Source: a virus. From it: a stretch of 64,000 nucleotides of DNA. Positions 33,914 through 57,276 of the stretch are shown in pieces. The stretch lies in the IMG/VR virus record IMGVR_UViG_3300046370_000202; one strand, written 5' to 3'. The notes below the pieces were generated by a model. The model saw only the letters and a list, made by a program, of their open reading frames with translations. It was not told where the DNA came from and ran no database searches. Positions within the stretch are counted from its first letter, which is position 1, and each line of letters starts with the position of its first letter. Both the position numbers and the translations under genes were made by a program.

Positions 33914-36900
33914 TTATACGTCAACGTGAGTGGCAGTGACCTTAACGGTTGCACCAGCACTTACAGCTGTGTATGTTAGTTCTACTGAACCATTTGTCAT
34001 TTGAACGTCGGTATCACCTAGCAGACCTGCGCCTGTATAAACGATTCCGTACTCTGTTATATATGCATTGGTTCCGTCGTGGATTACCATGCACTCACGT
34101 ACTTCGTGTTGACCGCCTAGATCTACAGTTACGATGAACTTAGCAGAACGATGGACAGTTGAATCAAACGAAGATACGACAACAGCAGATGTACCTACAG
34201 CAACATCTTCACCCTGAATGAATGCCTTGATTTCGTCAGCTAGTGTTTCAGCACCAACAGACTTAGGATCTAGGACACCAACCGAGTTAGTAGACTGAGC
34301 GATAACAACCGCCTGTGTACCGACTGGGATAGCAGAAGTGAATGTGATTGTCTGATTAGGACCATCAATTGTGTAGTGAGTTGTTGGATCCTGAATAACA
34401 CCACCAACAAACACGAACGAGTTCTGGTTAGTAGTTGCGAAATCTAGTGCAAATACTGTTTGTGAACCGTCACCGCTTAGTGTCTGACGTTGTGCGTCAT
34501 TGAACTGAAGTTGAGTTGGATCAACAAGCTCGATACCAGTACCGTCTGTACGTACGCGAGCAACATATCCTGCCTTTGCAGTACCTAGAGATGAATCAGT
34601 AACGTCTTCCAACTCAACGAATGCCTTACCAGTTGATACTGATAGAACACCTGTTGAACTGTTGTAAGATACGTCGCCTTCACCATCTACGTCTGTGACA
34701 GAGATTGAAGCACGAGCACGTGCTGGAGTAAAGTATTCGTTATCGCCTTCACTTAGATCAGTAGTTGAGAATACAGAGATATGCTGTGCAGCAAGTCCTG
34801 CATCCATCTGACCTTTGTTGACTGCGTCTGTTGCGTCAGTACCGTTTGCAACCGCAACAACCTTGTTTGAACCCATGTTCAAAACACCAGTCATTGTGTC
34901 GCCAGACTTTGATACCTTAGTATCTACTGCAGCTTGTAGAATTACGTCAGCAGCAGCAAACTCTGCACGGATCGCAGCGTCTTCTGAAACACGTGTTGAA
35001 GTTTCAGTAGCAATTGCAGTCGCGTTAGCAGCGATGTCTGTTTGGTTCTGTGATACTAGACCTGTTAGAGTACCGTCTGCAGCTTGGAAAGCAGCAACGA
35101 TTTCTGTTAGTGAGTCTAGTGCAGCAGAGTCAGTGTTTGACTTAATGAAGTCAACTTGTGACTGTAGAGATGTTTCAACACCCTGTGCACGAGTTGATTC
35201 AGCAGCGATTGCTGCAGCGTTAGTTGCGATGTCGCCTGCGTTTGCAACTTCAGCAGCCGTTGCACGGGCAACTTCTGCCGCTAGAGATGCAGTTAGATCT
35301 GAATCGCCAGCAATACGTGCAGCTTCTTCTGCATCAATCTGTGCCTGAAGTGAAGACTCTTTTGATAAACGACCAGTATCTACTGCTTTGATCGCTGCGT
35401 CCAACTTCTGGTCTGCATCTGCAAGAGATGTAGATAGATTGATGTAGTTAGTGCCGGATGGAGTTGCATAAGTGCCGTCAGCATTAACGCCAGCAGCTGT
35501 TTGTGTTGCAGTCATTTCACCTTCAACGACTGTTAGACGTGAGTCTAGAGCGTTGTCAGCAACTTGACGTGCGTTTGTTTCTGTAGTGATCTTACCGTCT
35601 AGGACGTTATCCGCATTCTCACGTAGAGTAGCTTCGTTTGCAACGATGCCGTCTGCGTAAGTCTTAGCATTTGCTTCTGCAGTGTCAGCCTTAGTAGTAG
35701 CGTCTGTTGCCGCTTCTGACTTGACTACAGCGTCTGCCGCGATGTATGCGTTAGTTACTACCACATCTGCCGCAGCGAACTCAGAACGGATTGCAGAGTC
35801 TTCTAGGACACGTGTTGCAATTTCAGAAACAAGAGCATCTGAATCTGCGTCTGCGCGAGCAACAGCAGCTGCAAGACCTGCAGTGTTAACGTCTGTCTCG
35901 CCGTGTACTTCGTTGATTGCACCAGTTAGAGTCTGTGCAGTTGTGTCTAGAGTTTCTTCTGCAGAACCGATCTTCGCTTCTAGAGCGTCGATGTCTGCTT
36001 CGTTAACTGTTAGACGACCTGCTTGTAGACCCTGTTCTGTTTCTAGAGCAGTCGCACGACCTTCTAGTGAAGTAGAACGAGATTCTAGATCAGTTGCACG
36101 TAGTTCAAGAGCATCGATGTCTGCTTCGTTGACTGTTAGACGACCAGAGTTTGCAGAAATAACATTCTGTAGGTCTGAGTCTGCGTCTTCAAATGCAGCT
36201 ACGATTTCTTGTAGTGTGTCTAGAGTTTCTGGTGAAGTACCAACAATCGCATCAACACGACCAGTTACTGCGTCAACGTCAGTACGTAGACCACCTTCAA
36301 CGCCAGTAGCGCGAGTAGTTTCGTCTGCGATTGCAGTAGCGTTGGCTTGTTCTGCAGCCTGTGCACGTGTAACTTCAATTGTTAGATCAGCTGCGTTCTG
36401 TGCGATTGCAGCAGTGTTTGTGTTAACGTCTGAACGTAGACCACCTTCAATACCAGTAGCACGAGCAACTTCTGCTGCAAGTGATGCTGTTAGATCGGAG
36501 TCTGCGCTAGCACGTGTAACGGCTTCTGCATCAATGTTGTTCTGCAATGCAGTGTCTGCGTTTGCACGAGCAACTGCTTCTGCGTCGATGTTAGACTGTA
36601 GAGTCGCATCACCAGCAGCACGAGCAACTTCTTCTGCACGTAGATCAGTTTCGTTTTGATCAGCAAGTGCTTCTACTGCATCCATCTCACCTTCTAGCGC
36701 AGTAGTGCGTAGAGAAAGTGCGTCGTCTGCAGCTGAACGAGTTGCAGCTTCTGCAGTAACTTGTGCAGTAGTGAAGTCGTTTGCTTCTTGCTTAGCAGTT
36801 AGGATACGTGCAGTAACAGTGTTACCGACAGTTCCGTCTACTGTTGCGTCACCGATTAGGGCAGCGTCTTGTGCATCAGCGTGTGCAATTGCAGCCGCTT

Positions 36901-38539
36901 GATGTAGATCTGCTTCTTGATCAGTGTATGCTTTTGCAGCGAATAGTACGTCTGAGTCGCGATCGATGTAATCTAGAGTGATGTTATCAATCTGTGTCTG
37001 TAGACCAGCATCTGCAGTACCACGAGTCGCCGCTTCTGCGTCAATCGCGTTCTGTAGTGCAGTGTCTGCAGAAGCACGTACAGACGCTTCCGTTGAAATA
37101 GCAGTAGTGTTAGATGATACTAGTGCAGAGATGTCTGAGTCCGCATCTACAAATGCAGAGACGATCTCTTCTAGTGTATCTAGAGTTTCTGGTGAAGCAC
37201 CAAGGATTGTTGTAACTTGTGATTGAACAGCGTCAACGTCAGTACGTAGACCAGATTCAACACCAGTTGCACGAACAACTTCTGCCGCTAGGTCAGATGT
37301 TAGTACGCCTTCCGCAGCAGTCGCACGAGCGATTTCAGCGTCAAGACCTGCTTGTAGGTCAGAGTCGCCTGCAATACGTGCAGCTTCTTCTGCAGCAACA
37401 CCTGAATCAGCGTGTGACTTAGATGCAGCTTCTGCAGATGCGATACGGTCAGTTACAGTGTTTCCTGTAGTACCATCTACAGTCGCATCGCCGATCAATA
37501 GATCATCGTGTGCTTTTGCAGATACTAGAGTTGCAGCGTCACCAGAGTTGATCAATGCAGTCATGTCAGTGCGGACTTGTGTGTCAGCAGTTGCACGTGC
37601 AGAGATTTCGTCTTGGATAGATTGTGCGTTTGCAGCTTCTGCCGCTGTTGCACGAGTTTCTTCGTCTGCGATATCCTGAGCGTTAACCGCTTCAGCCGCA
37701 GTTGCACGAACGATCTCAGCAGCAAGGTCAGATTGTAGAGTGTCTACATTACCTTCTTCTGTGGTTAGTCGAACGTTTAGTGCGTTGTCAGCAGCGATAC
37801 GAGCAGCTTCTTCTGCAGTAAGTGCAGTCTGAAGTGCAGTGTCGCCAGCAGTACGTGCAGATACTTCTGCAGTGATCTGACCTTGTAGATCAGCTTCTGC
37901 AGTTGTTGCACGTGTAACCTCGTTAGAGATTGCAGTTGAGTTTGCAATAGTAGATGCAGTCAATACGCTATCTGCGTTTTGGAATGCAACGACGATTTCT
38001 GCAAGTGAGTCAAGTGCAGCTGGGTCAGTATTGCTAACAATGTTGTCAATACGAGTGGTTAGAGCTGAATCTGCAGTTTGGTATGCAAGTTCAATTGCAT
38101 CTTCACGTGCTACTGCACGAGTAACTTCTGCAGCAAGATCAGCAGTGAGTGTTGCGTCAGCAGCGATACGAGCAGCTTCTTCCGCGTCAATGTTTTGTTG
38201 TAGTAGAGTTTCAGCCGCTGATGCGCGTGAAGATTCAGTTGCTACCGCGTCTGCGATATCTTGTGCGACTGCTTCTTTAGCACGTGCGTCAGTGAAGTAC
38301 TTAGATGAATTTTCGGTAGTGCCTTCAGAGATGTCGTCCGTAGAGAACGATGCGATGAAGTCATCTGCGCCAATTTTCTTAAGTGAGTCTGAACCTACAT
38401 CGTACAATAGGGTAAAACAATCTGCAGGGTTAACCATTCCCTGTAGTTCGGCTTGCCCCTGTACCGCGCTCTCATCAAGTTTTGTATTGATGACGGCCTT
38501 GTCGGCCAGAGCAGGTGATTTAATTTGCCTAAATGCCAT
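33914..38539 (-). CDS. 1541-aa coiled-coil fibre protein, shaft paralogous to the giant fibre
   Basis: Same E-x-x-R-A-x-x-A-E heptads, four LD(T/S)L.EIV.AF motifs, STDD(I/L)SEG..N.YFT..RA motif, KSGDTMTG.LNMG, C-terminal beta domains. Confidence 0.82.
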   Translation of the reverse strand: MAFRQIKSPALADKAVINTKLDESAVQGQAELQGMVNPADCFTLLYDVGSDSLKKIGADDFIASFSTDDISEGTTENSSKYFTDARAKEAVAQDIADAVATESSRASAAETLLQQNIDAEEAARIAADATLTADLAAEVTRAVAREDAIELAYQTADSALTTRIDNIVSNTDPAALDSLAEIVVAFQNADSVLTASTIANSTAISNEVTRATTAEADLQGQITAEVSARTAGDTALQTALTAEEAARIAADNALNVRLTTEEGNVDTLQSDLAAEIVRATAAEAVNAQDIADEETRATAAEAANAQSIQDEISARATADTQVRTDMTALINSGDAATLVSAKAHDDLLIGDATVDGTTGNTVTDRIASAEAASKSHADSGVAAEEAARIAGDSDLQAGLDAEIARATAAEGVLTSDLAAEVVRATGVESGLRTDVDAVQSQVTTILGASPETLDTLEEIVSAFVDADSDISALVSSNTTAISTEASVRASADTALQNAIDAEAATRGTADAGLQTQIDNITLDYIDRDSDVLFAAKAYTDQEADLHQAAAIAHADAQDAALIGDATVDGTVGNTVTARILTAKQEANDFTTAQVTAEAATRSAADDALSLRTTALEGEMDAVEALADQNETDLRAEEVARAAGDATLQSNIDAEAVARANADTALQNNIDAEAVTRASADSDLTASLAAEVARATGIEGGLRSDVNTNTAAIAQNAADLTIEVTRAQAAEQANATAIADETTRATGVEGGLRTDVDAVTGRVDAIVGTSPETLDTLQEIVAAFEDADSDLQNVISANSGRLTVNEADIDALELRATDLESRSTSLEGRATALETEQGLQAGRLTVNEADIDALEAKIGSAEETLDTTAQTLTGAINEVHGETDVNTAGLAAAVARADADSDALVSEIATRVLEDSAIRSEFAAADVVVTNAYIAADAVVKSEAATDATTKADTAEANAKTYADGIVANEATLRENADNVLDGKITTETNARQVADNALDSRLTVVEGEMTATQTAAGVNADGTYATPSGTNYINLSTSLADADQKLDAAIKAVDTGRLSKESSLQAQIDAEEAARIAGDSDLTASLAAEVARATAAEVANAGDIATNAAAIAAESTRAQGVETSLQSQVDFIKSNTDSAALDSLTEIVAAFQAADGTLTGLVSQNQTDIAANATAIATETSTRVSEDAAIRAEFAAADVILQAAVDTKVSKSGDTMTGVLNMGSNKVVAVANGTDATDAVNKGQMDAGLAAQHISVFSTTDLSEGDNEYFTPARARASISVTDVDGEGDVSYNSSTGVLSVSTGKAFVELEDVTDSSLGTAKAGYVARVRTDGTGIELVDPTQLQFNDAQRQTLSGDGSQTVFALDFATTNQNSFVFVGGVIQDPTTHYTIDGPNQTITFTSAIPVGTQAVVIAQSTNSVGVLDPKSVGAETLADEIKAFIQGEDVAVGTSAVVVSSFDSTVHRSAKFIVTVDLGGQHEVRECMVIHDGTNAYITEYGIVYTGAGLLGDTDVQMTNGSVELTYTAVSAGATVKVTATHVDV

Positions 38540-38986: not shown

Positions 38987-38994
38987 TATTTATA
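38987..38994 (-). promoter_or_regulatory. T4-type late promoter TATAAATA for the fibre operon
   Basis: Exact motif, intergenic. Confidence 0.8.
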
Positions 38995-40299: not shown

Positions 40300-40307
40300 T
40301 ATTTATA
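40300..40307 (-). promoter_or_regulatory. T4-type late promoter TATAAATA
   Basis: Exact motif, just past the stop of the 234-aa gene. Confidence 0.78.
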
Positions 40308-40311
40308 ACAC

Positions 40312-41016
40312 TTAAACTGCAGAAATGTCGTCAAGAACCATCTCACGAAATTCTTCAGAAGTCTCTGACCAGTCAAATACATAAGAAACGGTAACACGCC
40401 AGTCATCTGTAGATGCGGCATGATACATTAACTTTTCTGGTTCGTCATAGTGTCCGAAGTATGCAGCCTTACAAGTCCATACTCCTGGCGCGTCTTGACA
40501 ACGAACAACTTCTTTCGTTTCTGGATGAATGTAGTCAAAGTAACCAGAACCATCTTCTGAGTAAGAGAAGATAAGATTAAAACCTGGCGCATTTGCATTG
40601 TTATGCCATGAGATATACCCGCCCGGTGGATAGACTGCTGCAAGTGCATTGTGTTTAACAGACAAGAAGTTCATCATCTTGTCGTTTAGATCACGTAGGT
40701 GATGAGTCATGTCACGTTTAAAGATTGGGTCTGCATCTTTTTCAAACATCTTATGTGCGCGGTCAGATAGTTTGAAGTTATATCCAACCATCTCTTCGGG
40801 AAATCCATCATGTCCCTTGCCCATTGCAACGATGTCATTCATGTATCCTTCACCAACGTAGTATGAACGTTGACGAATATGTTCTGCTGCAGTCAAGTGA
40901 CAGTTCTTTTCAAAACCCTGCATAGTATGCAATTTGGCATACTGGTCTAAAACCTCTAGCAACTCTGGGTTATTTACCTCTACGTGCTTTAGATATTGGT
41001 CGTTTACCTGTGTCAT
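40312..41016 (-). CDS. Putative Fe(II)/2OG-oxygenase-like DSBH protein with H-x-N motif; paralog of 2340..2987
   Basis: YPPGGYISWHNNANAPGFNLIFSYSEDG.GYF...W.CKAAYFG...YHAA...RVTVSY. Confidence 0.6.
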   Translation of the reverse strand: MTQVNDQYLKHVEVNNPELLEVLDQYAKLHTMQGFEKNCHLTAAEHIRQRSYYVGEGYMNDIVAMGKGHDGFPEEMVGYNFKLSDRAHKMFEKDADPIFKRDMTHHLRDLNDKMMNFLSVKHNALAAVYPPGGYISWHNNANAPGFNLIFSYSEDGSGYFDYIHPETKEVVRCQDAPGVWTCKAAYFGHYDEPEKLMYHAASTDDWRVTVSYVFDWSETSEEFREMVLDDISAV

Positions 41017-41741
41017 ACGATTGGAGTATCCTTGTTCAACCCAGCCGAGAAGTGTCTTAAAATTACGGGTCCCGTCTCAGGTCGTGTTCTTGCCCAATTG
41101 AGGGCATTGTAATAATTCCACCTCAAGTCATCATCAAAGATACCAACCTTGAGGTCCTTATACTTTTCTTCCTTCTCAGTTAACCACCAGAGCGAGAACT
41201 GATCCCAAGACTTGAGACTGTCTGCATACCCTTCCGGCCACCAAGAGTCGTTCATCTGTCTGAATGTCAAGTCCCACCAATCGTCCATGAATTCACGTAC
41301 AATCGGTTTACTCATATCATACAAACAAACGCCACCGCATAATGTAAACTTCGCCATACCCTCTGGTGTAGAGAAGTCGCGTTCTGCGTAGATGTAATCT
41401 CTATCATCTGTTAACGCAGAAAACACCACATCGTGGTCTTTCATCTCATCCCAAACTTTTACAATGTCTTCGTGCTCACATTCCATATCAGCATCAATGT
41501 ACATTGTCAAGTCATACGGAGACTTTGCCATCCCCCACAACTTCGCACGGTAGTGATCATCACAAAAGATGATATCATCCGCGACTTCGCGACCACGATC
41601 ATCAATAAACCGTTCTTCGGTCACTAAACAAATCTTGCAATCCTCATAGTAATCTCTAATGGATTCGGCAAGATTCAATGCGTACAAATAAAAGTTGCGT
41701 TTCTTAGACGCAACTAATAAAAATCCTTTACTCTTCTCCAC
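41013..41741 (-). CDS. GT-A fold glycosyltransferase, GT8-like
   Basis: RAKLWGMAKSPYDLTMYIDAD (DxD), GGVCLY, WDQFSLW, RWN, VILRHF. Confidence 0.82.
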   Translation of the reverse strand: MEKSKGFLLVASKKRNFYLYALNLAESIRDYYEDCKICLVTEERFIDDRGREVADDIIFCDDHYRAKLWGMAKSPYDLTMYIDADMECEHEDIVKVWDEMKDHDVVFSALTDDRDYIYAERDFSTPEGMAKFTLCGGVCLYDMSKPIVREFMDDWWDLTFRQMNDSWWPEGYADSLKSWDQFSLWWLTEKEEKYKDLKVGIFDDDLRWNYYNALNWARTRPETGPVILRHFSAGLNKDTPIV

Positions 41742-42189
41742 TGTCTTCGGCCTCTAGTTGTTCTTGCAGAATCATAATTGAGTACATATCTACTTCAATC
41801 TTTGACTTCGCCCGACGCAGTTTTGCCTTTAACTTGCGGTTCTTAGAGTTTTTAATCTCCTCAACCTCAAACGCTTCTAGTTTGTAGTTGAACAGTTTTT
41901 CAAGCTTACGTGCCTTTTGATGTTCTTCTTCACGTATCTTTTCTTCTTCAGCTTCTGCCTTCTTGCGAACAACACGATCAGATGTTTCCTTATCAATCGC
42001 ATCTTCACCTAGGGCATCAACAACTTCATTAAACAGTTCGTTCTCACTACCATCCTTATCATGACGATGTAAAAACATTTGTTGGCGCGTCACTCTACCA
42101 ACGTCATCTTCAAGTTCTAGAATACAGTTTATTTCTTTCTTTTCGTCTGTTTCCCAGAACGCATTATCCATCCAACGCTTATAACTCAT
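41728..42189 (-). CDS. Hypothetical charged helical protein, candidate fibre chaperone
   Basis: 153-aa ORF with GGAG RBS directly after the 1800-aa gene, overlapping the GT start; function inferred from position only. Confidence 0.55.
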   Translation of the reverse strand: MSYKRWMDNAFWETDEKKEINCILELEDDVGRVTRQQMFLHRHDKDGSENELFNEVVDALGEDAIDKETSDRVVRKKAEAEEEKIREEEHQKARKLEKLFNYKLEAFEVEEIKNSKNRKLKAKLRRAKSKIEVDMYSIMILQEQLEAEDSGEE

Positions 42190-42236: not shown

Positions 42237-42265
42237 AAATAAAACGGGTCAAGTGAATGACCCGC
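42237..42265 (-). terminator. Intrinsic terminator after the 1800-aa gene
   Basis: CGGGTCA-TTCACT-TGACCCG followed by TTTTATTT. Confidence 0.75.
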
Positions 42266-42295: not shown

Positions 42296-45200
42296 TTATG
42301 CAACACGTACGTATAATGTATATGTTTCAGTAACCTCTGTAAGCGTATCTGAAATCGTTGCACCCACGTAGTTACCCAAGAAAGATCTTGCATAGTTACC
42401 AACGTAATCTCGAGCATAATTACCACCAAATGTACGTGAGTAATTACCTGTGAAGTCTCCAACATAGGCAGAGTCACGATTACGTGAGTATGCACCAGAG
42501 TATGCAGAAGTACGGACACGAGCATATGCAGAGACACGGACACGAGAGTAATTACCTACGAAGTCGCGTGAGTAAGTGCCAGTATATTCACCAGTAAATG
42601 TGCGTGAATAATCACCGACATAGTTACCACCGAAGTCGCGAGTATATGTGCCAGTGTATTCACCAGCAAAGTCACGGGAGTAGTTACCTACATATTCCCC
42701 AGCGAAGCCGCGTGAGTAGTTGCCCGCATACTGACCAGAGAAGTCTCGAGTATATGTGCCAGTGTATTCACCCGCGAATCCACGAGCATAGTTACCTACG
42801 AAGTCGCCGACAAAGTCACTTGCATAAGCCCCAGTGTATTCACCAGCAAATGTTCTTGCATAGTTACCAGTAAAGTCTCCAGCAAAATCACGTGCATAAT
42901 TACCAGCAAATGTTCTTGCATAGTTACCAGTAAATGTGGCATTATATGTTCCCGCATACTCACCAACAAATCCACGTGAGTAAGCACCAGTATATTCACC
43001 AACGAAGTTGTTGTTGTAAGTACCAGTGTATGCGCCTGTGTATTCACCTACGAATGTTCGGTTATAAGTTCCTGCGTATTCGCCAACAAATCCACGTGAA
43101 TAGTTACCCGCAAAGTTTCCACCAAAGTCACGTGCGTAGTTTCCTACGTAGTTTCCTCCGAAGTCTCCAACAAAATCACCGATAAAGTTACCAGCGAAGT
43201 TACGAGAGTAGTTACCAGTGAATGTGCGTGAGTAGTTGCCTGCAAAATCTCCAGCGAAGTCACGCGAGTAGTTACCAGTGAATGTACGTGAATAGTTACC
43301 AGCAAAGTTTCCTGCAAAGTTAGTCACACGATCACGAGCATATGTTGATGCACGGTTGCGGATGTATGCAGAAACACGAGTCACGACATATGCAGAGTAA
43401 CGAGTACGAGTAGATGTACGAGTATACTCACCAGTAAAGTTACCGGCATATTCACCAGCAAATCCACGTGAGTAGTTACCTACAAAGTCACCTGCATAGT
43501 TACGGGCGTAGTTACCGATAAAGTTACCAGCGAAGTTTGTTACTCTATCACGAGTGAAGTTACCTGTGTAATCAGTAATTCGTGTACGTGCATACGAAGA
43601 GTTGCGATTACGCGTAGATGTACGTGTTGATGTACGAGTAAAGTTACCTGTGTAATCAGTAATTCGTGTACGTGCATAAGCTGAGTAACGTGTGCGTGTT
43701 GAAGTAATTGTCGATACACGTGTGAAGTTGCCTACGTAGTTTGTTACGCGATCACGAGCGTAAGCTGAGTTACGTGTACGAGTATAGTTTGTTGCACGAG
43801 TTCTTGCATAAGCACTGTAACGAGTACGAGTAGATGTGCGCGTAGATGTACGAGTAAAGTCACCAACATAGTTAGTAATACGAGTACGTGAGTAGGCACT
43901 GTAACGAGTACGTGTTGAAGTACGTGTTGACGTACGAGCATATTCACCTACGAAGTCACCAGCATAGTATCCAGTACGTGTGTAGTTACCTGTATTGGTA
44001 AAGGTCTGAACACGATTACGAGTGAACGCACGAGCGTAGTTACCTGTGTAGTACAATGTACGAGTGTAGTAACCAGTACCTGTACCCGTACGTGTTGACG
44101 TACGGCTGTAATTGCCTTCATATGAGAACGGACGACTACGAGTATAGTTTCCTACAAAATCACCAGTAAAGTTGGTTACACGATCACGTGAGTAGTTTCC
44201 AGCGTATGAGAACGCACGACTTCGATTATACGTAGAAGTACGGGTGCGCGTATAGTCGCGAGAGTAGTTTCCAGCGTAAGAGAATGCACGACTGCGAGTA
44301 TAATCCTCTGCGGATACACGAGTTCGGGCATAGTCCCCAACAAAGTTGCCGGTAAAAGAACCAGCCGTGCCTTGAGTAACCAACCCATAGTAATAATTTT
44401 GAAAAAGTTGCATTTGGAGAGTGCCTCTTGAATAGGTCACTCCATTGTGCGTAATTGAAGTTGCGTTGGCGTTAGTGCTGGTCGCAATAGTCGTAGCGTT
44501 AATAACAACAGAAGCTCCCGCAGTACTCTTTAACCAATATGTGACATATTGGGCGTACTGAGTAGTACTTCCCGAATTAACAGAAGTTCGGGTTGATGTG
44601 CGTGCGTAGTTGCCTACATACGAAGTACCGCCCGTAACTCCAGTATAGTTTCCTACAAAGTTTCCTGTAAAAGAACCGCCAGAACCACTGTAAGTAACGC
44701 CGTAACGAGTTTCCAGCCCAAAGTTCTCTCGGAAAGTGCCTCGATTATACGTGACACCACCATTGGTTATTGATGTCATGGTGGTTCCTTGCGCTATAGC
44801 GACAGAAGAACCGCCCACATAAACAATTACAGTACTGGATTCATTATCAATAACCCAACCATCTGTCACTGTGTTGAAAGGACTCTCCGAATAATCGTCA
44901 GTAGCACCACCAGAACCCGTAGAAACGCGAGTAGAAGTTCGGGTGAAATCTGTACTAGTTGGAGTTCCAGTGTAGTTACCTAAATAAGATCCCGTTCGGT
45001 TTCGAGTAAAGTTTCTTGAATAGTTTCCGCCGAAGTTACGCGAATAATTACCCAAATAAGATCCAGTACGAGTACGGCCATAGTTGCCTACAAAGTTGCC
45101 TGCGTAGTTGACATCTGGTTCGCGAGTATAGTTACCCAAATAAGATCCGGTTCGTGTACGCGCATAGTTACCTACAAAGTTGCCTGCGTAGTATAGTGTA

Positions 45201-47698
45201 CGAGTATAAGCTGGGGTACGTGCATAGTCTGCAGCATAGTTACGTGCATAGTTGCCAGTGAAGTCGCCGACATAGTACAGTGTACGTTGATAGTTCAAAG
45301 TACGTGTTGAAGTACGTGTTGATGTGCGTGAATAGTTTCCTACAAAATCACCAGCATAGTTACCAGCAAAACCACGAGAATAGTTGCCTACAAAGTCGCC
45401 AGTAAATGTAGTCGCGTAATTACCTACGAAATCACCACCGTAGTTGCCTGCGAATCCTCGAGCATAGTTGCCTACAAAGTCGCCTACATAGTCTCCGACA
45501 TAATTTCGGGCGTAGTTACCAACAAAGTTACCTGCGAATGTCGTTGTATAGTTGCCTGTGTAGTTACCTGCAAAGTCACCAGCGTATCCACGAGCATAGT
45601 TTCCTACGAAATCTCCGGTGAATACTGTGGTATAATTACCTACGAAATCGCCACCGTAGTTGCCCACAAATGTACGTGCATAGTTTCCTACGAAATCTCC
45701 GGTGAATACTGTAGTGTAGTTACCCACGAAGTTACCAGCGTAATTAGTAACACGGTCACGTGTGTATGCAGATGCACGAGTACGGGTAGATGTACGCGCA
45801 TAAGCTGAGTAACGTGTTCTCGCAGAAGTACGAGTAGAAACACGAGCATAGTTGCCTACGTAGTTTCCTGCAAATCCGCGTGAGTAGTTACCTACGAAGT
45901 TACGTGAATAGTTGCCTTGGAAAGAACGTGAGTAGTTTCCAATAAAGTTGCCAGCAAAATCGGTCACACGATCGCGAACATATGAAGAAACACGGCCACG
46001 AGTAAACTCACCCGTGAAGTTAGTCACACGATTGCGTGTGTAAGTAGAAACACGGGCACGAGCATAAGCATTTGCAAAGTTAGTGACACGGTCGCGAGTG
46101 TAGTTAGTGATGCGGGTTCGTGTGTAATCTGCAGAGTATGCTGATGTGCGTGTACGAGTTGAAGTTCTTGTATAAGCTGAGTTACGAGTACGTGAGTATG
46201 TTCCGGCATAAGCTGATACACGGTTTCGTGAATATGTACCAGAGTATGTACCTGTGTATGAAGAAACACGAGTACGAGCGTAAGTGCCTGAATAGGCAGA
46301 GTTACGAGTACGTGCATATGTACCTGCATAAGCAGAAACACGACCACGAGTGTATGCAGAAGAACGAGAACGCGTGAACGTACCAGTAAAGTTCTGTACG
46401 CGATTACGTGTGTAAGTAGAAACACGTGCGCGTGAGTAAGTTCCCGCAAAGTAACCAGTAAATGCAGTTAGTCTATTACGAGAATATGTAGAGATACGGT
46501 TACGAGCATACGCGCCAGAGTACGCAGATGTGCGTGTGCGCGAATATGTTCCAACGTATGTTGAGACACGGGTTCTCGCATAAGTGTCTGAATACGCGGA
46601 TGTACGAGTTCGTGAGTAGGTTCCTGTATAAGAGGAAACACGTGTACGAGTGTAATCAGCCGAGTAAGTAGAAACACGATTGCGAATATAAGTCCCTTCA
46701 TATGAAGATGGTCGCGTACGAGTGTACTCTCCGACGAAATCTCGAGAATAGTTACCTACGAAATCTCTATTATATGTTCCTGTGTAGTCTCCAACAAAGG
46801 TGCGGGAGAATGTATCTACACTATTACGTGTGTATGTTGAAACTCTATCGCGAGTGTAAGCCGAAATACGCGTACGTGCGTATGATGAGTTACGTGTGCG
46901 AGAGTATGAACTATTTACAATAGTACGTCGGGTGTTAGTTGCATCACCAACAACAGACCATGTTCCAGGCAGTGTTGGTACACCTTGCGCAGCTGAACGG
47001 AACTGATAAGATCCGATCGCACCGGCCGTCGCACGGAGGGATTTGACACGTTGACCAATAGTATATTTGATCTGATCATCCGACATTTCTTTGAATCCGT
47101 CAAAGTTGGATGACCCATCGTAACAAATAGCAACGGGACGCACTGCGTTAACCACAGGCATCGTTACACGTTGATAGATGTTGTAATTTGTTACTGTACC
47201 ATCACCGTGTGTGTCTGAGAAGACATTTGCGAGGAAGACCGTATAGTCTGCGCCAGGTGATGTACTAGAAAGTTTGAATGTACCGACATAGTCATTCTGG
47301 ACCATGTTACTGAGTACACGACTTGCAAGATTATCCAAATCTGGATCTACCATTTCGTAGAAGCCTGGATTTGGGCCTGAGTCATAATAACCCACAGGAC
47401 GAACAAAATCGGCACCAGTTTCATCTGCAACACCGCCCACCTGACGTAGAGGTGTGGTTACAGTTGTAGATGTGATATTAGTAATTGGGTGAGTACCCGC
47501 AGATTCATTAAAATACGCGTCCGTAAATGAACCAATATTAACATCACCAGTTAAACTGATATCTCCGACTTCACCAGCAGATGCATCTGCTAATGCTTGT
47601 CCCACCGCATAAGAAAGATAGTTCTCTTCTAGCGGTGTAAATTCCTGTAGGTCACCATTAGTATTTTTAATTTTTAGTGGGATACTAGATGCTGACAC
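42296..47698 (-). CDS. 1800-aa tetrapeptide-repeat fibre-like protein with mirror-complementary arms (predicted giant antiparallel hairpin with forked tip)
   Basis: GTG start after a late promoter; ~260-aa N-terminal domain; residues 265-912 and 1133-1780 built from [YF]xRx, [YF]xGx, Rx[ST]x and SxRx units; two central ~65-75-aa domains; C-terminus YTLYVRVA. Confidence 0.85.
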   Translation of the reverse strand: MSASSIPLKIKNTNGDLQEFTPLEENYLSYAVGQALADASAGEVGDISLTGDVNIGSFTDAYFNESAGTHPITNITSTTVTTPLRQVGGVADETGADFVRPVGYYDSGPNPGFYEMVDPDLDNLASRVLSNMVQNDYVGTFKLSSTSPGADYTVFLANVFSDTHGDGTVTNYNIYQRVTMPVVNAVRPVAICYDGSSNFDGFKEMSDDQIKYTIGQRVKSLRATAGAIGSYQFRSAAQGVPTLPGTWSVVGDATNTRRTIVNSSYSRTRNSSYARTRISAYTRDRVSTYTRNSVDTFSRTFVGDYTGTYNRDFVGNYSRDFVGEYTRTRPSSYEGTYIRNRVSTYSADYTRTRVSSYTGTYSRTRTSAYSDTYARTRVSTYVGTYSRTRTSAYSGAYARNRISTYSRNRLTAFTGYFAGTYSRARVSTYTRNRVQNFTGTFTRSRSSAYTRGRVSAYAGTYARTRNSAYSGTYARTRVSSYTGTYSGTYSRNRVSAYAGTYSRTRNSAYTRTSTRTRTSAYSADYTRTRITNYTRDRVTNFANAYARARVSTYTRNRVTNFTGEFTRGRVSSYVRDRVTDFAGNFIGNYSRSFQGNYSRNFVGNYSRGFAGNYVGNYARVSTRTSARTRYSAYARTSTRTRASAYTRDRVTNYAGNFVGNYTTVFTGDFVGNYARTFVGNYGGDFVGNYTTVFTGDFVGNYARGYAGDFAGNYTGNYTTTFAGNFVGNYARNYVGDYVGDFVGNYARGFAGNYGGDFVGNYATTFTGDFVGNYSRGFAGNYAGDFVGNYSRTSTRTSTRTLNYQRTLYYVGDFTGNYARNYAADYARTPAYTRTLYYAGNFVGNYARTRTGSYLGNYTREPDVNYAGNFVGNYGRTRTGSYLGNYSRNFGGNYSRNFTRNRTGSYLGNYTGTPTSTDFTRTSTRVSTGSGGATDDYSESPFNTVTDGWVIDNESSTVIVYVGGSSVAIAQGTTMTSITNGGVTYNRGTFRENFGLETRYGVTYSGSGGSFTGNFVGNYTGVTGGTSYVGNYARTSTRTSVNSGSTTQYAQYVTYWLKSTAGASVVINATTIATSTNANATSITHNGVTYSRGTLQMQLFQNYYYGLVTQGTAGSFTGNFVGDYARTRVSAEDYTRSRAFSYAGNYSRDYTRTRTSTYNRSRAFSYAGNYSRDRVTNFTGDFVGNYTRSRPFSYEGNYSRTSTRTGTGTGYYTRTLYYTGNYARAFTRNRVQTFTNTGNYTRTGYYAGDFVGEYARTSTRTSTRTRYSAYSRTRITNYVGDFTRTSTRTSTRTRYSAYARTRATNYTRTRNSAYARDRVTNYVGNFTRVSTITSTRTRYSAYARTRITDYTGNFTRTSTRTSTRNRNSSYARTRITDYTGNFTRDRVTNFAGNFIGNYARNYAGDFVGNYSRGFAGEYAGNFTGEYTRTSTRTRYSAYVVTRVSAYIRNRASTYARDRVTNFAGNFAGNYSRTFTGNYSRDFAGDFAGNYSRTFTGNYSRNFAGNFIGDFVGDFGGNYVGNYARDFGGNFAGNYSRGFVGEYAGTYNRTFVGEYTGAYTGTYNNNFVGEYTGAYSRGFVGEYAGTYNATFTGNYARTFAGNYARDFAGDFTGNYARTFAGEYTGAYASDFVGDFVGNYARGFAGEYTGTYTRDFSGQYAGNYSRGFAGEYVGNYSRDFAGEYTGTYTRDFGGNYVGDYSRTFTGEYTGTYSRDFVGNYSRVRVSAYARVRTSAYSGAYSRNRDSAYVGDFTGNYSRTFGGNYARDYVGNYARSFLGNYVGATISDTLTEVTETYTLYVRVA
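42359..44302 (-). repeat. C-terminal (returning) arm of 12-bp/4-aa degenerate repeats
   Basis: Residues 1133-1780 parse into tetrapeptide units plus four 2-residue shifts. Confidence 0.9.
44963..46906 (-). repeat. N-terminal (outgoing) arm of 12-bp/4-aa degenerate repeats
   Basis: Residues 265-912 parse into tetrapeptide units plus four 2-residue shifts. Confidence 0.9.
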
Positions 47699-47747: not shown

Positions 47748-47755
47748 TATTTATA
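47748..47755 (-). promoter_or_regulatory. T4-type late promoter TATAAATA for the 1800-aa gene
   Basis: Exact motif about 50 nt upstream of the GTG. Confidence 0.8.
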
Positions 47756-47818: not shown

Positions 47819-48268
47819 TTATGCTGGGGCGTCAGGCCATGGAACATCGTCCAAACTTTCAATTCCGTCTAGAACGTCTGTGATATCACGTAGTTCTTGA
47901 CGATAACCCGCCCACGCATTCTTCATATCTTCTGACAGTGGAGCATCTGGAATTTGTGTCCAATCTGTTCCCGCAAGAAGACCATTTCTTCGTGTACGAA
48001 TATCTTTTATTAGATCCTCAAGATCCCATACCCAGTTTCGTGATTCTGTATCCCATCGACAGTATTGATTTGGTGCGTCCTCACGAGGGTGAAACCTTCC
48101 ATCATCAAAATAATTTCTTTTTATAAACTCAAACCCATTCTCAATAGGAAAGTCTAAATGAAGGATTAAAGATCCATCTTCCTGAAATCCTTGTTCAGGC
48201 AATCTTCCATATGCAGTTTGAAGGTTTATTATTTGTTGATCTTTAATGTATGCAATATGATTTACCAT
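47819..48268 (-). CDS. Phage tail (fibre) assembly chaperone
   Basis: IRTRRNGLLAGTDWTQIPDAPL....K.AW..YRQELRDIT....VPWP signature. Confidence 0.85.
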   Translation of the reverse strand: MVNHIAYIKDQQIINLQTAYGRLPEQGFQEDGSLILHLDFPIENGFEFIKRNYFDDGRFHPREDAPNQYCRWDTESRNWVWDLEDLIKDIRTRRNGLLAGTDWTQIPDAPLSEDMKNAWAGYRQELRDITDVLDGIESLDDVPWPDAPA

Positions 48269-51696: not shown

Positions 51697-54600
51697 TTAG
51701 TGATGCGCAACGTCAGTTCCATCTTCGGAATCTGACCCTGTACTGTCACCACTGCCTCCTGCACCCGAAGTGCCAGAACTTTGTGCTGGGGTTAACTCTC
51801 TAGAGATGCGGTGATAGAATATTGAGATGCCGGGATTACTCTGGTCTAATTCTTCTAGATCACCCTTGAAGTAAGTGTACCCATCATTAGCGTCAATAGA
51901 TACAATTTGTGTATCATCAAGACCTTGTGTTTGAGAAAGGTCATATGTTATACTAGATCCATTCCAATAAATGCTAGCTATATTAAATTCGTCACCGCCG
52001 CTTATTATTTGAGAGATAGAGAAATAATACTGAGGTGCTGTTCTAGAATAGAAATCGAGTTCCGGTTCAGGTTCTGGTTCGGGCTCTGGTTCTGGTTCAG
52101 GACCTGGCTCAGGTTCGGGCTCTGGTTCTGGTTCAGGACCTGGCTCAGGTTCCGGTTCTGGTTCGGGTTCTGGTTCAGGTTGTGGTTCGGGTTCTGGACT
52201 TGGAGCAGGAGTATCTACTGGGTTCAAGTCTAGGTCAAACAACTCTCCAAACTTCTGCAGTCCGCTAGCAGTGATCAAAGAGATTGCACGAAGGTCTGTA
52301 ATCATCGGAGACTTAGATGAATTGTCAGACTTCATTACAATCATGACTTGGAACACAGTAAATGGTTCTGCGTCTAGTGTGTACTCATAGTCACGGAAAA
52401 TGTCCGGATTCTCATCTGTAGGCATTGGTGTGTCAATTTCAATTTTCGCCCACAACGCATCAGCAAATGCGTTCTCATCTAGAGATGTACGTGCGTACAC
52501 TTCAAACTCTGCACCACGTGCTCGGTTCGCTGCGAAGATAATTTTGAGACCTTCTGACAACTCATCAATGATCACAGGTGTTGTAATGTGTTGAGTTGCG
52601 TTTCCATTATCGATGACATTTTCTAGAGTAACTACAGAAACTCTTTGTAGATCAATCACAGGGGAAACTTTAGGGTCGCCCGTTGACATATCTAATTTGA
52701 ATTTTAATGTTTTTACGGGAGAGTTGTCTGAGGTAGCGACAACATTCGGATTCGTATTTACATTTAGGTCATTGAGCGACACGCTTTGTATTTTACTTAC
52801 AGGAGGATCCTGTGTATATGAGTGTTGTTGAAATGTACGACTAGACCCATACGAATCCGCCAGAGCTTTAGTTACGGTAGGTTGAATACTTGTAGACCTA
52901 GGTGAGAAAGACTGCACTTGTGGAATATATTGATCATAAACCACCTGTTGAGTTGCCGTGACGTTATTACCACCACCTTGCGCAGAACTTGTTGCTGCAG
53001 CCGGTGCGGTAATGGTATACCCTTCCCACGTCGGAGATTCTACAACAAATGATCCTGTAAGTTTGTCGGGAGTAAGTCCGCCCACATTACTTGATACGTC
53101 TGATAAGACGACAACATCACCACTACTAAATCCATGCCCTTGGTGTTGCACTTTAACTTTATTTGATCCTGCTTCAATAGTTTCAAACGGACTCTGAATC
53201 AAAGTCACTTTAGGTAACTCTGCATTCTCTAAGTGTAGTACACCAGAAGGAGCAAATTCTGCGCGATCCAGTTTAAACATCAAATCCTTAGTTTGATCTG
53301 GAGTCCACGTTGATCCGTTCTGCGACAAGAACAGAGAACCTAGTGTTGGTTGACGTGATACTCTGGCTTCACGAGAAGGTCCTACAACAAACTCATAAGT
53401 CTGTGCGGTATATACATTATAATCTACAGACTCAGCAAGTAGTACTATAGCATATTCTTCGCCAGGAGTCAAGTAAATTGGTTCATCAAATACAACTTCT
53501 GTTCCTCTTTCAGACAGGTAATCTATACCCTGTTCTTGTGCGTCTGCTAAAGGTGTCACCATGATATCTTCTGAATTGACAAACTTTACTGCGCCTGGTA
53601 CAATACGATTTGTAGGTACGCCATTCTCTACTGCTCGGATTTGAACTTGCATAGGAATGACAGAGTCTTTACTCTCAACATAAACATGTGCTTTGGTGAT
53701 AAAGATGCCGTTTGGATTTTCTACTTGATCAACAAAGAATGTCTGCGCAAGTGGATCTCGCCAATAAGTTGTTTCAACAATACGCGTTGTACGCATAGTA
53801 CGTTGTATTGTCTCGATAGTACCCACCGAAGTGTATCCTGCGCGACTGACCGCAGTAGAATCTTCTTCATTGTTTTTGCTGATGTCAAGTAGTTTAAATT
53901 CTTGCCGACCAGTTCTAAAGCTAATATCTGGAGTGTTGGGTAAGAAGAAAGAACCTATCAGTTCTCCTTTATCGTCAGTTACTAGGTCGCCTTTGCCGCC
54001 TAATTCGGTAGGATATTCGGTTGCATTAGAATATTGATTGCCGTATTCGGTTGGGTCGTCAGAGAAGTTGACATAAGTAGACTCTGGTCTTACCCAATCA
54101 TTCACATCTTTGTTGCCAAAGAAAGCCCACATAGGACTATTAGGCCTCAATCCCTGTACCCTAAATGATATTTTGCGAGAACGCATGAAAGGAATAATCT
54201 CCACATCCAGAATGCGTTCTCCTATAAATTCTTGAATTGTTTTTGACGTTACTTTAGATCTAATTTTATTATTAGGTCTTGAGAAGAAAGTAGGCAAATA
54301 AGTCGTAATACGACGTACAACATTCTGCATTATATCGGGCAGTCTTTTAGTCTCTACCCATTCGTCAGATGACGGAGACAATGTCATATGTCCGTTAGAA
54401 GTGATAACCGCAAAAGGGTTAATGTTGTCTGTACCAGTCGCTAATAGTTGAGATATTATTGTAACGTTTGTATGAGGTAGAGTAACAAGGTCTCCTTTCT
54501 TAGAGGCGGTATTTTGTATGTTGGTTGCATCATACATTAAACGTACAGAATTTTCCACGAATGATGGACGCAATAAACCATCCGGATCTACCGATGCTCT

Positions 54601-57276
54601 ATAAGCAGGATTATGCACGTCAGAAAAGTTCAGTGTGCTAAAGTTATCCGCAATGAATCCCGCTTTGGTACGAGGGTTGCCGTTCGCATCTAATACTTGT
54701 AAGACGTTGGTATTAGTCTCAAGGAAACTCAATGCAGTCAACTCGTACAATGTCTCTACGCGATCAGACAACTTAGAGATGTCTTTCATTGTGAACCGGC
54801 GATTAGGTATGTATGTGCTGATCACATCCGAACGGTCGAATGTGTATGCGTTCAACGTGAACTTGTATAACGCTAATGATCCTGCGGGCGTCTCTGGTTC
54901 GCGTGGATCAATAGATGGTTGACCCTGAATAACTTGTAATTCCCCAAAACCTATATCTCCACGACTGTCTGTAGAGTTCACTACAAGAATATCCGTACGC
55001 GGTAAGTAGTAATCAACTTGATTAATTATAATCGATGAGGCGTTCTGTGGCAACTCGATGATATCAAAAGAGTCTTGTGGCTGAACAACATCTCTATCTG
55101 GTCTGAAATCTAGTACATCGCGTAAAGAGATTGTCTCTCCAGTGCTAATTGTGGTGTGTGAAGGGATATCTTCATATGCTAGTCCAGTGTATGAACTCGC
55201 AGCAAAGAATTTGCCACCATCTATACGTTCGAAGTACTCAAAGGAAATTTCTATTGATACGTTAGGTCCGTGTGGGATAGTGTATCCTTCTTTTACGAAA
55301 GCTTTTGCGATATCATAATAGTTGTCTCGTTGACCGCCATCTAAATCAAACTGGAATGTGATGTCTGTAGTTGTACTACCGTTAGTTAGTTGGACAGATG
55401 TTATTGAAATCGCGTCGACAACCGACAAAGAAATATGCGTTGTTTCTTGAGTCACATTTATTGTTTTCGACCCCGTAGTGACTGTTTTTGTTTTAGGGGA
55501 GATAGACTCTTGCTTAAAGTATGCGATCGCATATGTCTTATTGTCATCTAATCCGGAATACGTTGATGAATTATCAGAATTGGGTGTAGGGGCAATTTTA
55601 AGAATTGGTCCGTTTACTTCTGAAATTATCCAACTAGAAGATTCAACACCCGCAATAGTAATTACCCCGCCAGATGGCTGGTCTGTTCTAAATTTTTGTG
55701 ATGTGTAAGAAGCGCCTTGAATGCTGTTTTGTTCCGGAGATTTATATGGCAACGCGAATAACAGATCGTTATTAGATGTTCCATATAGTGTGGTATCAAA
55801 TGTAAGCGGTGTTTGGTCTGAATCTGTATCGAAAGATAAAGGTCTTAGTGGGATATCATTTCCAAATTCATCCTGTAAATATCTTACACCTGAGAATGGG
55901 TAACGAGCACTAGTTACGACAGTCTGGCCGTCGCTGTCAGTATACTCAATTTTATCCATTTTAATGTCAAAGACATACAAGCGATAACCTACACCATCTC
56001 TTTGAATTCCTCTAATGTGTGCGGTTCCTAACAATTGTGTGACTTCTTGATAAACTCCAAATAAGTTTACTTTGCCAAATGTGCCTAGTTGACCGAACCC
56101 TTCAGTACGATCTGGATCAATGTATACCCAGTTTCCATATACAGCAGGTACCGCCTCTTGTGTCTGTGTTCGCGTCTCACGGGCTTTAGGTACAGTTATG
56201 TCAGTAGTACCTACTTCTAAACGATAACCGTCTACGTACGCGACACCCTCTGTAACGTCTAAGTTTAGACTTGTGCCATCTTCTTCTAGGTCTTCAAAGA
56301 TAGCTCTAAACTCTTCGACAACATAGTCGCCAGATTCTTCTTTCGTGCGAAGTGCCAGTAGATCATTGACACGATTATATGCGTCAAATGTACTAATCTC
56401 TCGTGTAATCACGCCGTTAACGATACGAGCAACGAATACAAAGTTATCTTCTCCGGCCTCTTTACGTGTAGACGGAATTAGTTTAATCTGATAACGATCT
56501 GCGCCTGGGGCGGTTCTATCAGGAACTTCGCCTTGATTGTCGTATAACTTTGGATCTTCGTTTGATGACGGTCCACCCGCTTTGACTATATTCTGTTCTA
56601 TCTTAAATCCAAAGTCTACTGTGGGAGTGCCACTATACTTGTCAACGAATGTGCTGCCGCCACTTAGATATACAAAATGTCCTTGTACAAAAAAGTCCCC
56701 CGACGAAAAATATGCTTTAGTCGATTTACCCGAAGCTGGAATAACAAGATCTAGTCCATCATCTCCAGTGACTATCGTATCTGGACCTACGACCATGTTA
56801 ACTCCACCAGTGCCATCTGCAAAAGATAGAACATTGGTGGCGTCTACACGAGGAGAAATGGTTGTATCAGTAACACCTAATGTGCTTGTATATTGTACGT
56901 ATAGTGTAGCTGGATCGCCTGTAGGATTTGATGGATTGGGAACAACCGCATCATGCAACTCTATAATCTTAAACTCGACTTCACCATTCGTCAACACATC
57001 CCCAACGGAAGCACTTGTAATATCACTGCCGGACGTTAATCTAATATACTCCAATCCATTATCTACAGTCGCACCGCCTGGATTGACCATCGCACCTTCT
57101 TTAAAGATGTTCTGACCGAATCGTGCGATTTCTTCTTGAATGATTGTTTGTTGTTCGATTAGTTCACGAGCTTGAAGCGCACGACCGGAATTGTATAGGA
57201 CACGATAGTAACCGTCATTCGCGTCATAGAAATCGCGATATGTTTCTCTGAACGTTTTGTTTGTAAAATCTACCAT
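51697..57276 (-). CDS. Large baseplate structural protein (DUF4815/VrlC-like) with added (EP)n linker and C-terminal tip domain
   Basis: [86 protein letters not shown]...DLMF. Confidence 0.88.
52059..52196 (-). repeat. Pro-Glu coding repeat (linker)
   Basis: [12 protein letters not shown]...PGPEPE tract. Confidence 0.9.

Follow-up and report, generated by a model that had tools for sequence, protein, structure and literature searches.

The window analysed here, a stretch of 64,000 nucleotides from the IMG/VR virus record IMGVR_UViG_3300046370_000202, carries a gene (P0001; 42296..47698, minus strand; open reading frame list and translation) for an 1800-residue protein with a GTG start, in which two arms of 652 residues each match one another residue by residue in reverse order. 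The gene most probably encodes a late virion fold-back fibre of a T4-like marine myovirus, with a giant stem emerging from a globular anchor. The window is part of a 160-kb T4-like virus record that is ~93% complete.

Arm 1, the outward arm (residues 264-915; 44954..46909, minus strand), was read as Y-x-R-x-R-x-S-x and F-x-G-x-Y-x-R-x units mixed in aperiodic order on a tetrapeptide lattice, and arm 2, the returning arm (residues 1127-1778; 42365..44320, minus strand), as its mirror complement at i+j=2042. A gapped fold-back alignment of the protein returned one ungapped segment in this register (264-915 against 1778-1127, 652 pairs), which bears out the gap-free register proposed in an initial annotation of the window. 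That annotation had placed the arms at 265-912 and 1780-1130 (42359-46906, corresponding to residues 265-1780); the register stood, and one end was off by a 3-residue slip, the partner of residue 265 being 1777. From residue 265 to 909 and from 1141 to 1793, aromatic residues keep to a 4-residue lattice, and the two lattices coincide at i+j=2042, where Arg-rich blocks of one arm face Gly-rich blocks of the other. Within the first 134 tetrad pairs, every tetrad beginning with Arg or Ser (36 in arm 1 and 27 in arm 2) faced an [FY]xGx tetrad (63/63), and position 3 was paired as G:R 64, R:S 31, G:T 17, N:R 1 and R:R 0 times. The earlier count of 63 was thereby reproduced exactly, as was the earlier description of position 3 (Arg opposite Gly or Ser with one Asn, Thr opposite Gly, no Arg opposite Arg). 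Arg-type units change arm 13 times, in agreement with the block swaps of matched length that had been reported, and both arms are never Arg-type at one place outside a short irregular zone. The 2-residue phase slips of that zone occupy the same columns on both arms, again as described. The 28-residue repeat units of arm 1 (from residue 661) lie opposite 28-residue units of arm 2, and the other face of the proposed ladder pairs T/V/A/S with N/T/D. The arms contain 175 Arg and no Lys, His, Cys, Trp or Met, for a net charge of +104.

The arms are separated by an apex (residues 916-1126; 44321..44953, minus strand) that holds two small globular domains, paralogs that have diverged from one another (tblastn, E 1e-9), each with short repeat segments on its flanks. 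These segments, which are too short for statistics, follow the same pairing rule (F:F, R:G, S:F). This arrangement suggests a forked tip. No significant copy of the apex domain was found by BLAST in the other genes of the window.

Null models were generated by shuffling tetrads, by shuffling blocks of 4, 8, 16 or 32 residues, and by circular unit shifts, with composition, phase and overlap kept constant. The 63 R/S tetrads facing [FY]xGx were compared with 100,000 tetrad shuffles (mean 26.6, standard deviation 3.8, maximum 45) and with 133 circular unit shifts (maximum 44), giving an approximate probability of 1e-30. Over all 162 tetrads, the observed pairs were R:G 76 (46±5 in shuffles), R:R 2 (20±3), G:G 11 (26±3) and R:S 32 (12±3), and these values were reached in 0 of 5000 shuffles at any block size from 4 to 32. 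Among in-phase circular shifts the next-best R:G was 60 and the lowest R:R was 14. Register 2042 was the best of all registers scanned. The aperiodic unit order had been predicted to specify a unique register, and 2042 was the clear best in the all-register scan, with shuffled arms and other registers far worse. The mirror match is real and not due to chance. A complementarity score in 48-residue windows was discarded for lack of register discrimination, since any in-phase repeat pair scores well. The DNA of the fibre gene holds many direct repeats; a search of the gene for inverted repeats returned only two chance-level inverted matches (21-28 nt), none at mirrored positions. An origin of the mirror pattern in a DNA palindrome or in antisense sequence was ruled out on the grounds that the gene lacks an inverted repeat.

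In the proposed architecture, residues 1-263 would co-fold with the final 22 into one globular anchor, possibly beta-prism-like, one hairpin of which would be drawn out into an enormous stem. The chain would run outward through residues 264-915, make its turn in the apex and return through residues 1127-1778, antiparallel and residue by residue. Both arms would share the 4-residue lattice, with an aromatic at position 1 and two 8-residue unit types in aperiodic order, and Y-x-R-x-R-x-S-x of one arm would always be placed opposite F-x-G-x-Y-x-R-x of the other, so that Arg would face Gly, Ser or an aromatic ring and never Arg. If the strands form such a ladder, one face would display positions 1 and 3 from each arm in rows of Y:Y, R:G, R:F and S:R, and the aromatic neighbours diagonal to each Arg could form a continuous Arg/Tyr/Phe ladder on that face. 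Because the unit order is aperiodic, a single register would be free of clashes and the sequence would fix its own register, like a nucleic-acid hairpin; other registers would cost Arg:Arg or lattice clashes, and the code would thus act as negative design against mis-zipping. A globular domain could branch off one arm as a side excursion and leave the pairing undisturbed.

A beta-ribbon conformation over the whole stem would give a length of ~215 nm here and ~340 nm in the homolog from phage C48C1 (described below) at 0.33 nm per residue pair. A very long antiparallel hairpin had been envisaged from the outset: the sequence code and the modelled stem base support it, and the rest of that proposal is inferred, namely full-length beta strands, an extent of ~200 nm, cation-pi/knob-into-hole chemistry and an oligomeric state, for which a trimer, the usual rule for such fibres, would be expected by analogy. 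The conserved anchor is the likely site of baseplate/virion attachment, and host contact probably falls to the apex and the inserted domains, which vary; these assignments were made from which parts stay conserved and which vary.

A tblastn search with the N-terminal 264 residues retrieved one phage record, C48C1 (OQ984149.1, filed under Kyanoviridae), at 76% identity. The C48C1 homolog is 3347 residues long, is encoded in a corresponding gene neighbourhood and has the same termini. Its arm 1 (residues 263-1295, 1033 residues) was gap-free in the fold-back alignment, and its arm 2 was aligned in six pieces that also amount to 1033 residues (72+72+83+84+282+440). The stretches skipped were a 73-residue tip and five globular insertions (127, 174, 158, 153 and 315 residues), the borders of which coincide exactly with repeat ends (…G-P) and restarts (P-G/L-G…). 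The register was scored without assuming a lattice phase, because the lattice slips in this protein, and gave a fit of 245 against a best of 183 among 1032 circular shifts. The arms are 58% longer than those of the window protein (+381 residues each) and still equal. Equal arms in homologs had been anticipated in the initial annotation, and insertions and deletions were found to be mirrored between the two: a 14-residue insertion at 806/807 has its counterpart in 6+8 residues at 1228-1237 (residue 806 pairs with 1236), and where arm 1 gained 44 residues arm 2 gained 16+28, in each case inside the paired zone of 28-residue repeats. Agreement between the homology map and the pairing map of the window protein and C48C1 came in long runs and covered 438 of the 644 positions. 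Neither Pfam nor PHROGs gave a match to the C48C1 insertions.

A perfect 225-nt tandem duplication (100% identity) was noted in C48C1 at L002:6632-7081, within the largest of the inserted domains and the beginning of a repeat segment of arm 2. No repeat stretch other than this extra copy lacks a partner in the fold-back alignment; the copy could have arisen by a very recent duplication or as an artefact of assembly.

Relatives of the N-terminal domain were collected from a 50%-identity library (331 relatives), which puts the family, drawn from metagenomic T4-like phages, at no fewer than 331 clusters. The listed relatives range from 318 to 2503 residues, and 115 of the 150 listed end in the C-terminal motif E-T-Y-T-L-Y-V-R-x-A. 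Their repeats differ widely yet are mirror-organised. Five VRDVNF units lie opposite five PQPQNF units in one example; in other members, NPxIxY blocks lie on either side of the centre, opposite themselves, Cys-containing DPCxF units lie opposite PAQPT, and centres are rich in Pro, Gly and Asn. Paired units other than those of the window protein were seen in the lineages of P0110, P0059, P0066 and P0104, and the fold-back design therefore seems independent of any particular code. The conserved final strand of the N-domain (G-T-W…) was opposite the conserved C-terminal tail in every case inspected.

Aromatic matches in 111 proteins were higher in the fold-back than in the parallel alignment in 83 cases, against 23 in the opposite direction (Wilcoxon p 7e-10). 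A register was also predicted from the termini only (K = length + position of G-T-W - 2), and the initial 150 stem residues were used to score it. In 21 of 104 proteins (0.7-3 by chance) it came first against every circular shift, and in 31 of 104 it was within the top three. Members with insertions or other codes were expected to fail this test, for which the scoring matrix was trained on the window protein alone. Raw aromatic self-convolution and local fold-back dynamic programming were tried as family evidence and dropped, because the central peak is biased by maximal overlap. P0003, a close metagenomic homolog truncated at a contig end, carries an insertion of ~700 residues in the anchor domain before the last strands, with LamG-like (PF13385) and FG-GAP (PF14312) repeats; the anchor too can therefore host extra domains.

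Structures of two short members, P0032 (657 residues) and P0044 (404 residues), were predicted by AlphaFold2 (AF2) with family alignments. The N-domain and C-terminal tail formed one globular domain in both models, with a predicted local distance difference test score (pLDDT) >90. In the window protein, the anchor domain (residues 1-263; 46910..47698, minus strand) ends in the invariant G-T-W strand, and the C-terminal tail (residues 1779-1800; 42299..42364, minus strand) corresponds to the segment modelled as a strand completing the anchor domain (pLDDT 86-98 in the two members). Long strands were predicted at residues 253-283 and 623-655 of P0032 and at residues 242-276 and 366-402 of P0044. 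These are of equal length within each model and centred on the predicted register, and outside the globular part the only possible partner of each long strand is the other. The models point to a two-stranded stem leaving a domain built from the N-domain and the C-terminal tail; a locally folded solenoid, the structure that had been named as the one to refute the hairpin, was not seen in either.

VIA alignment of the confident part of the model to MABP-type beta-prism domains (8b6v, 2qp2, 3tow) gave Z 5.7-7.5, a range that is common for unrelated folds, over 109-120 residues, with a root-mean-square deviation of 3.4-3.7 Å and 7-12% identity. The alignments extend from the N-domain as far as the final residue. 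This match would fit a stem inserted in one hairpin of a globular domain and is taken as a lead only; MABP/beta-prism domains are found at the C-termini of MACPF proteins and have no functional link to the anchor. Foldseek returned nothing from the PDB and only non-significant rows from BFVD. PDB phmmer and family-profile searches gave no match, Pfam and PHROGs held no family for the whole fibre protein or for the apex, and the ESM Atlas gave only unnamed viral clusters.

Several points weigh against a fold-back fibre. The phage is known solely as an uncultured 160-kb IMG/VR record. Strand pairing in the AF2 models was deduced from DSSP state, equal length and position; mid-arm pLDDT was 30-45, and beta conformation and contacts past the stem base rest on sequence logic. 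The alignable homolog pair is ~75% identical and has only 3 double changes, too few for residue-level covariation. The matrix derived from the window protein fails on members with other repeat types, and long relatives give only short alignments. A charge of +104 with 175 Arg is physically unusual for a two-stranded ribbon, which may need partners or modification.

The same antiparallel pairing could be made between chains, with arm 1 of one subunit bound to arm 2 of another in a head-to-tail dimer or a domain-swapped oligomer. Pairing in cis and in trans yields the same i+j rule, and the sequence statistics fit both alike. The AF2 monomer models, however, close the stem base within one chain, the C-terminal tail completing the N-domain at pLDDT >90; inserted domains exit and re-enter one arm at adjacent positions; and the apex can shrink to a turn between two units, as in P0110, which favours a simple hairpin. 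Pairing between chains was considered improbable. Still less credence was given to arms that fold separately, as beta-solenoids or triple beta-helices, with the mirror pattern imposed by another constraint such as a common symmetric partner. Eight-residue repeats are indeed found in triple beta-helices such as that of T4 gp5 (PMC3004832), and AF2 gave no confident arm-arm contacts past the stem base, but separate folding would leave unexplained the exact residue-by-residue complementarity, the matched 2-residue slips and 13 matched block swaps, the exactly equal arms of two very differently sized proteins, the matched insertions and deletions, and the pairing, conserved in the family, between the C-terminal tail and the final strand of the N-domain. 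That chance or the composition of a low-complexity repeat protein produced the pattern, or that it came with an inverted DNA duplication, was rejected as having next to no probability: any two in-phase repeat stretches do score positively and the raw aromatic self-convolution does peak near the centre through maximal overlap, but the unit shuffles and circular shifts held composition, phase and overlap constant, the DNA has no inverted repeat, and a homolog of another length obeys the rule as well.

With the intramolecular fold-back fibre preferred, a stronger reading was judged to lie just on the probable side of even: that the protein is an analogue of base pairing, in which a two-letter octad code sets one register of a 0.2-0.34 micrometre intramolecular ribbon, domains are tolerated like RNA bulges, and the code has been reinvented in sister lineages (VRDVNF:PQPQNF, DPCxF:PAQPT). 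The chance that the protein stands for a new class of fibrous fold, one whose pairing code is programmable, is substantial. If true, the rules of this class would be ready for use in programmable beta-ribbon materials, and nature would supply a design principle for register-specific beta pairing. The register of a very long fold-back structure would be readable from sequence, with arm lengths, insertions and deletions, and inserted domains coupled over hundreds of residues, and the mirror code would explain the failure of structure predictors on these proteins. Phage fibres decide host range, and this large family (at least 331 clusters at 50% identity) is without relatives in Pfam, PHROGs or the PDB. 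The equal-arm rule could also be used as an annotation check, as with the unpaired 225-nt duplicated segment that it flags in the C48C1 record.

The GTG start of the fibre gene is backed by P0003, the protein of which opens M-SASSIPLKIKN, and homologs start at matching residues. A T4-type late promoter, TATAAATA (47748..47755, minus strand), was located ~50 nt upstream of the start codon. This motif occurs 9 times in the window (2.4 expected), every copy on the coding (minus) strand, and its other sites (e.g., 40300-40307 and 38987-38994, minus strand) are consistent with T4-type late promoters preceding structural genes. A terminator-like hairpin with a T-rich tail (42244..42265, minus strand; 8 pairs, 5 of them G-C) lies ~30 nt past the stop codon. 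With a late promoter ~50 nt upstream, a terminator-like hairpin after the stop codon and structural neighbours, the gene reads as a late, probably monocistronic, virion structural gene.

Directly upstream is a tail fibre assembly chaperone gene (47819..48268, minus strand; PF16778, E 1e-15, and PHROG tail fibre assembly families), which occupies the corresponding position in phage C48C1. The hairpin after this chaperone gene is terminator-like by eye and was not called by the terminator scan. Three overlapping downstream genes (40312..42189, minus strand; 153, 242 and 234 residues) accompany the fibre gene and also follow it in C48C1 and in a distant metagenomic relative (38-45% identity). The sole family hint for this trio was a sub-threshold GT2 match of the 242-residue protein (E 0.011), and the trio may form a fibre assembly or modification module.

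All genes of the window are on the minus strand. Further neighbours encode a PF09327 tail-tip fibre-domain protein, a 1859-residue DUF4815 protein (51697-57276) and an LtfC-like small protein, and an open reading frame of 5165 residues in the same structural module (18334-33831, minus strand) is flanked by giant ones, that of the DUF4815 protein and one of 1541 residues (33914-38539). The window also carries homologs of gp23, gp20, gp18, gp17, gp15, scaffold and baseplate-wedge genes, the T4-type major head, portal, sheath and terminase among them, and in a relative the fibre gene sits between gp8/DUF4815 and gp13. The setting is that of phage tail and baseplate fibres in general: a late structural gene in a baseplate/fibre module, beside fibre chaperones. 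The whole 160-kb record was searched for a psbA-type gene (PF00124) and none was found. The nearest named relative is filed under Kyanoviridae, yet with no psbA the host may not be a cyanobacterium.

The protein was compared with known systems in which aromatic residues, short repeats or fold-back chains are used. Designed tryptophan-zipper hairpins and aromatic-Gly cross-strand pairs in beta sheets were reportedly described by Cochran 2001 and by Merkel and Regan 1998. These also place aromatics across strands, and aromatic or long side chains over Gly, in two-stranded antiparallel hairpins. The tryptophan-zipper peptides are ~12-16 residues long and uniform in pattern, without a long aperiodic code that chooses one register.

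Triple-stranded beta-helices (the C-terminal domain of T4 gp5, and gp12) are likewise short-repeat phage fibre modules, with 8-residue repeats in gp5, and are rich in Gly and beta-branched residues (PMC3004832). They are built from three parallel chains round a common axis and do not fold back; mirror complementarity, equal arms and matched insertions and deletions are absent from that fold. Distant chain halves are independent in the gp5 C-terminal domain and gp12, whereas the halves of the window protein are strongly dependent in reverse order, and no Pfam match was obtained.

The closest precedent is the needle at the tip of the T4 long tail fibre. PDB 2XGF is said to be this needle domain, of gp37, from Bartual et al. 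2010. In the gp37 tip, three chains run out to a head domain and then back. The gp37 needle is a short six-stranded antiparallel fold-back fibre (PMC9659904) of ~150 x 25 Å (PMC3004832) that holds seven iron ions (PMC6957217). Both proteins belong to T4-type phage fibres, and in both the chain would run out to a distal head domain and back, antiparallel, with the C-terminus ending on the phage-proximal side of the tip; for the window protein, this out-and-back course is predicted from the arm pairing and the AF2 models. Literature searches returned no description of this fibre family or design. The initial annotation had cited no described fibre family of this design, a novelty that has to be qualified by the gp37 needle as a fold-back precedent and that stands insofar as gp37 is without this code, scale or detectable homology. 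No sequence relation was detectable, and the best BFVD row, a T4 gp37 fragment, was non-significant (E 5e-3, TM 0.08). The gp37 needle is held by His-x-His iron sites, whereas the arms here (264-915 and 1127-1778) have no His or Cys. The gp37 needle is ~15 nm long and has tens of residues per strand, against 652 pairs here and 1033 in C48C1. The stem of this family would be 40-70-fold longer and would carry a register code, and its returning strand, unlike that of gp37, would go fully back and complete the N-terminal domain.

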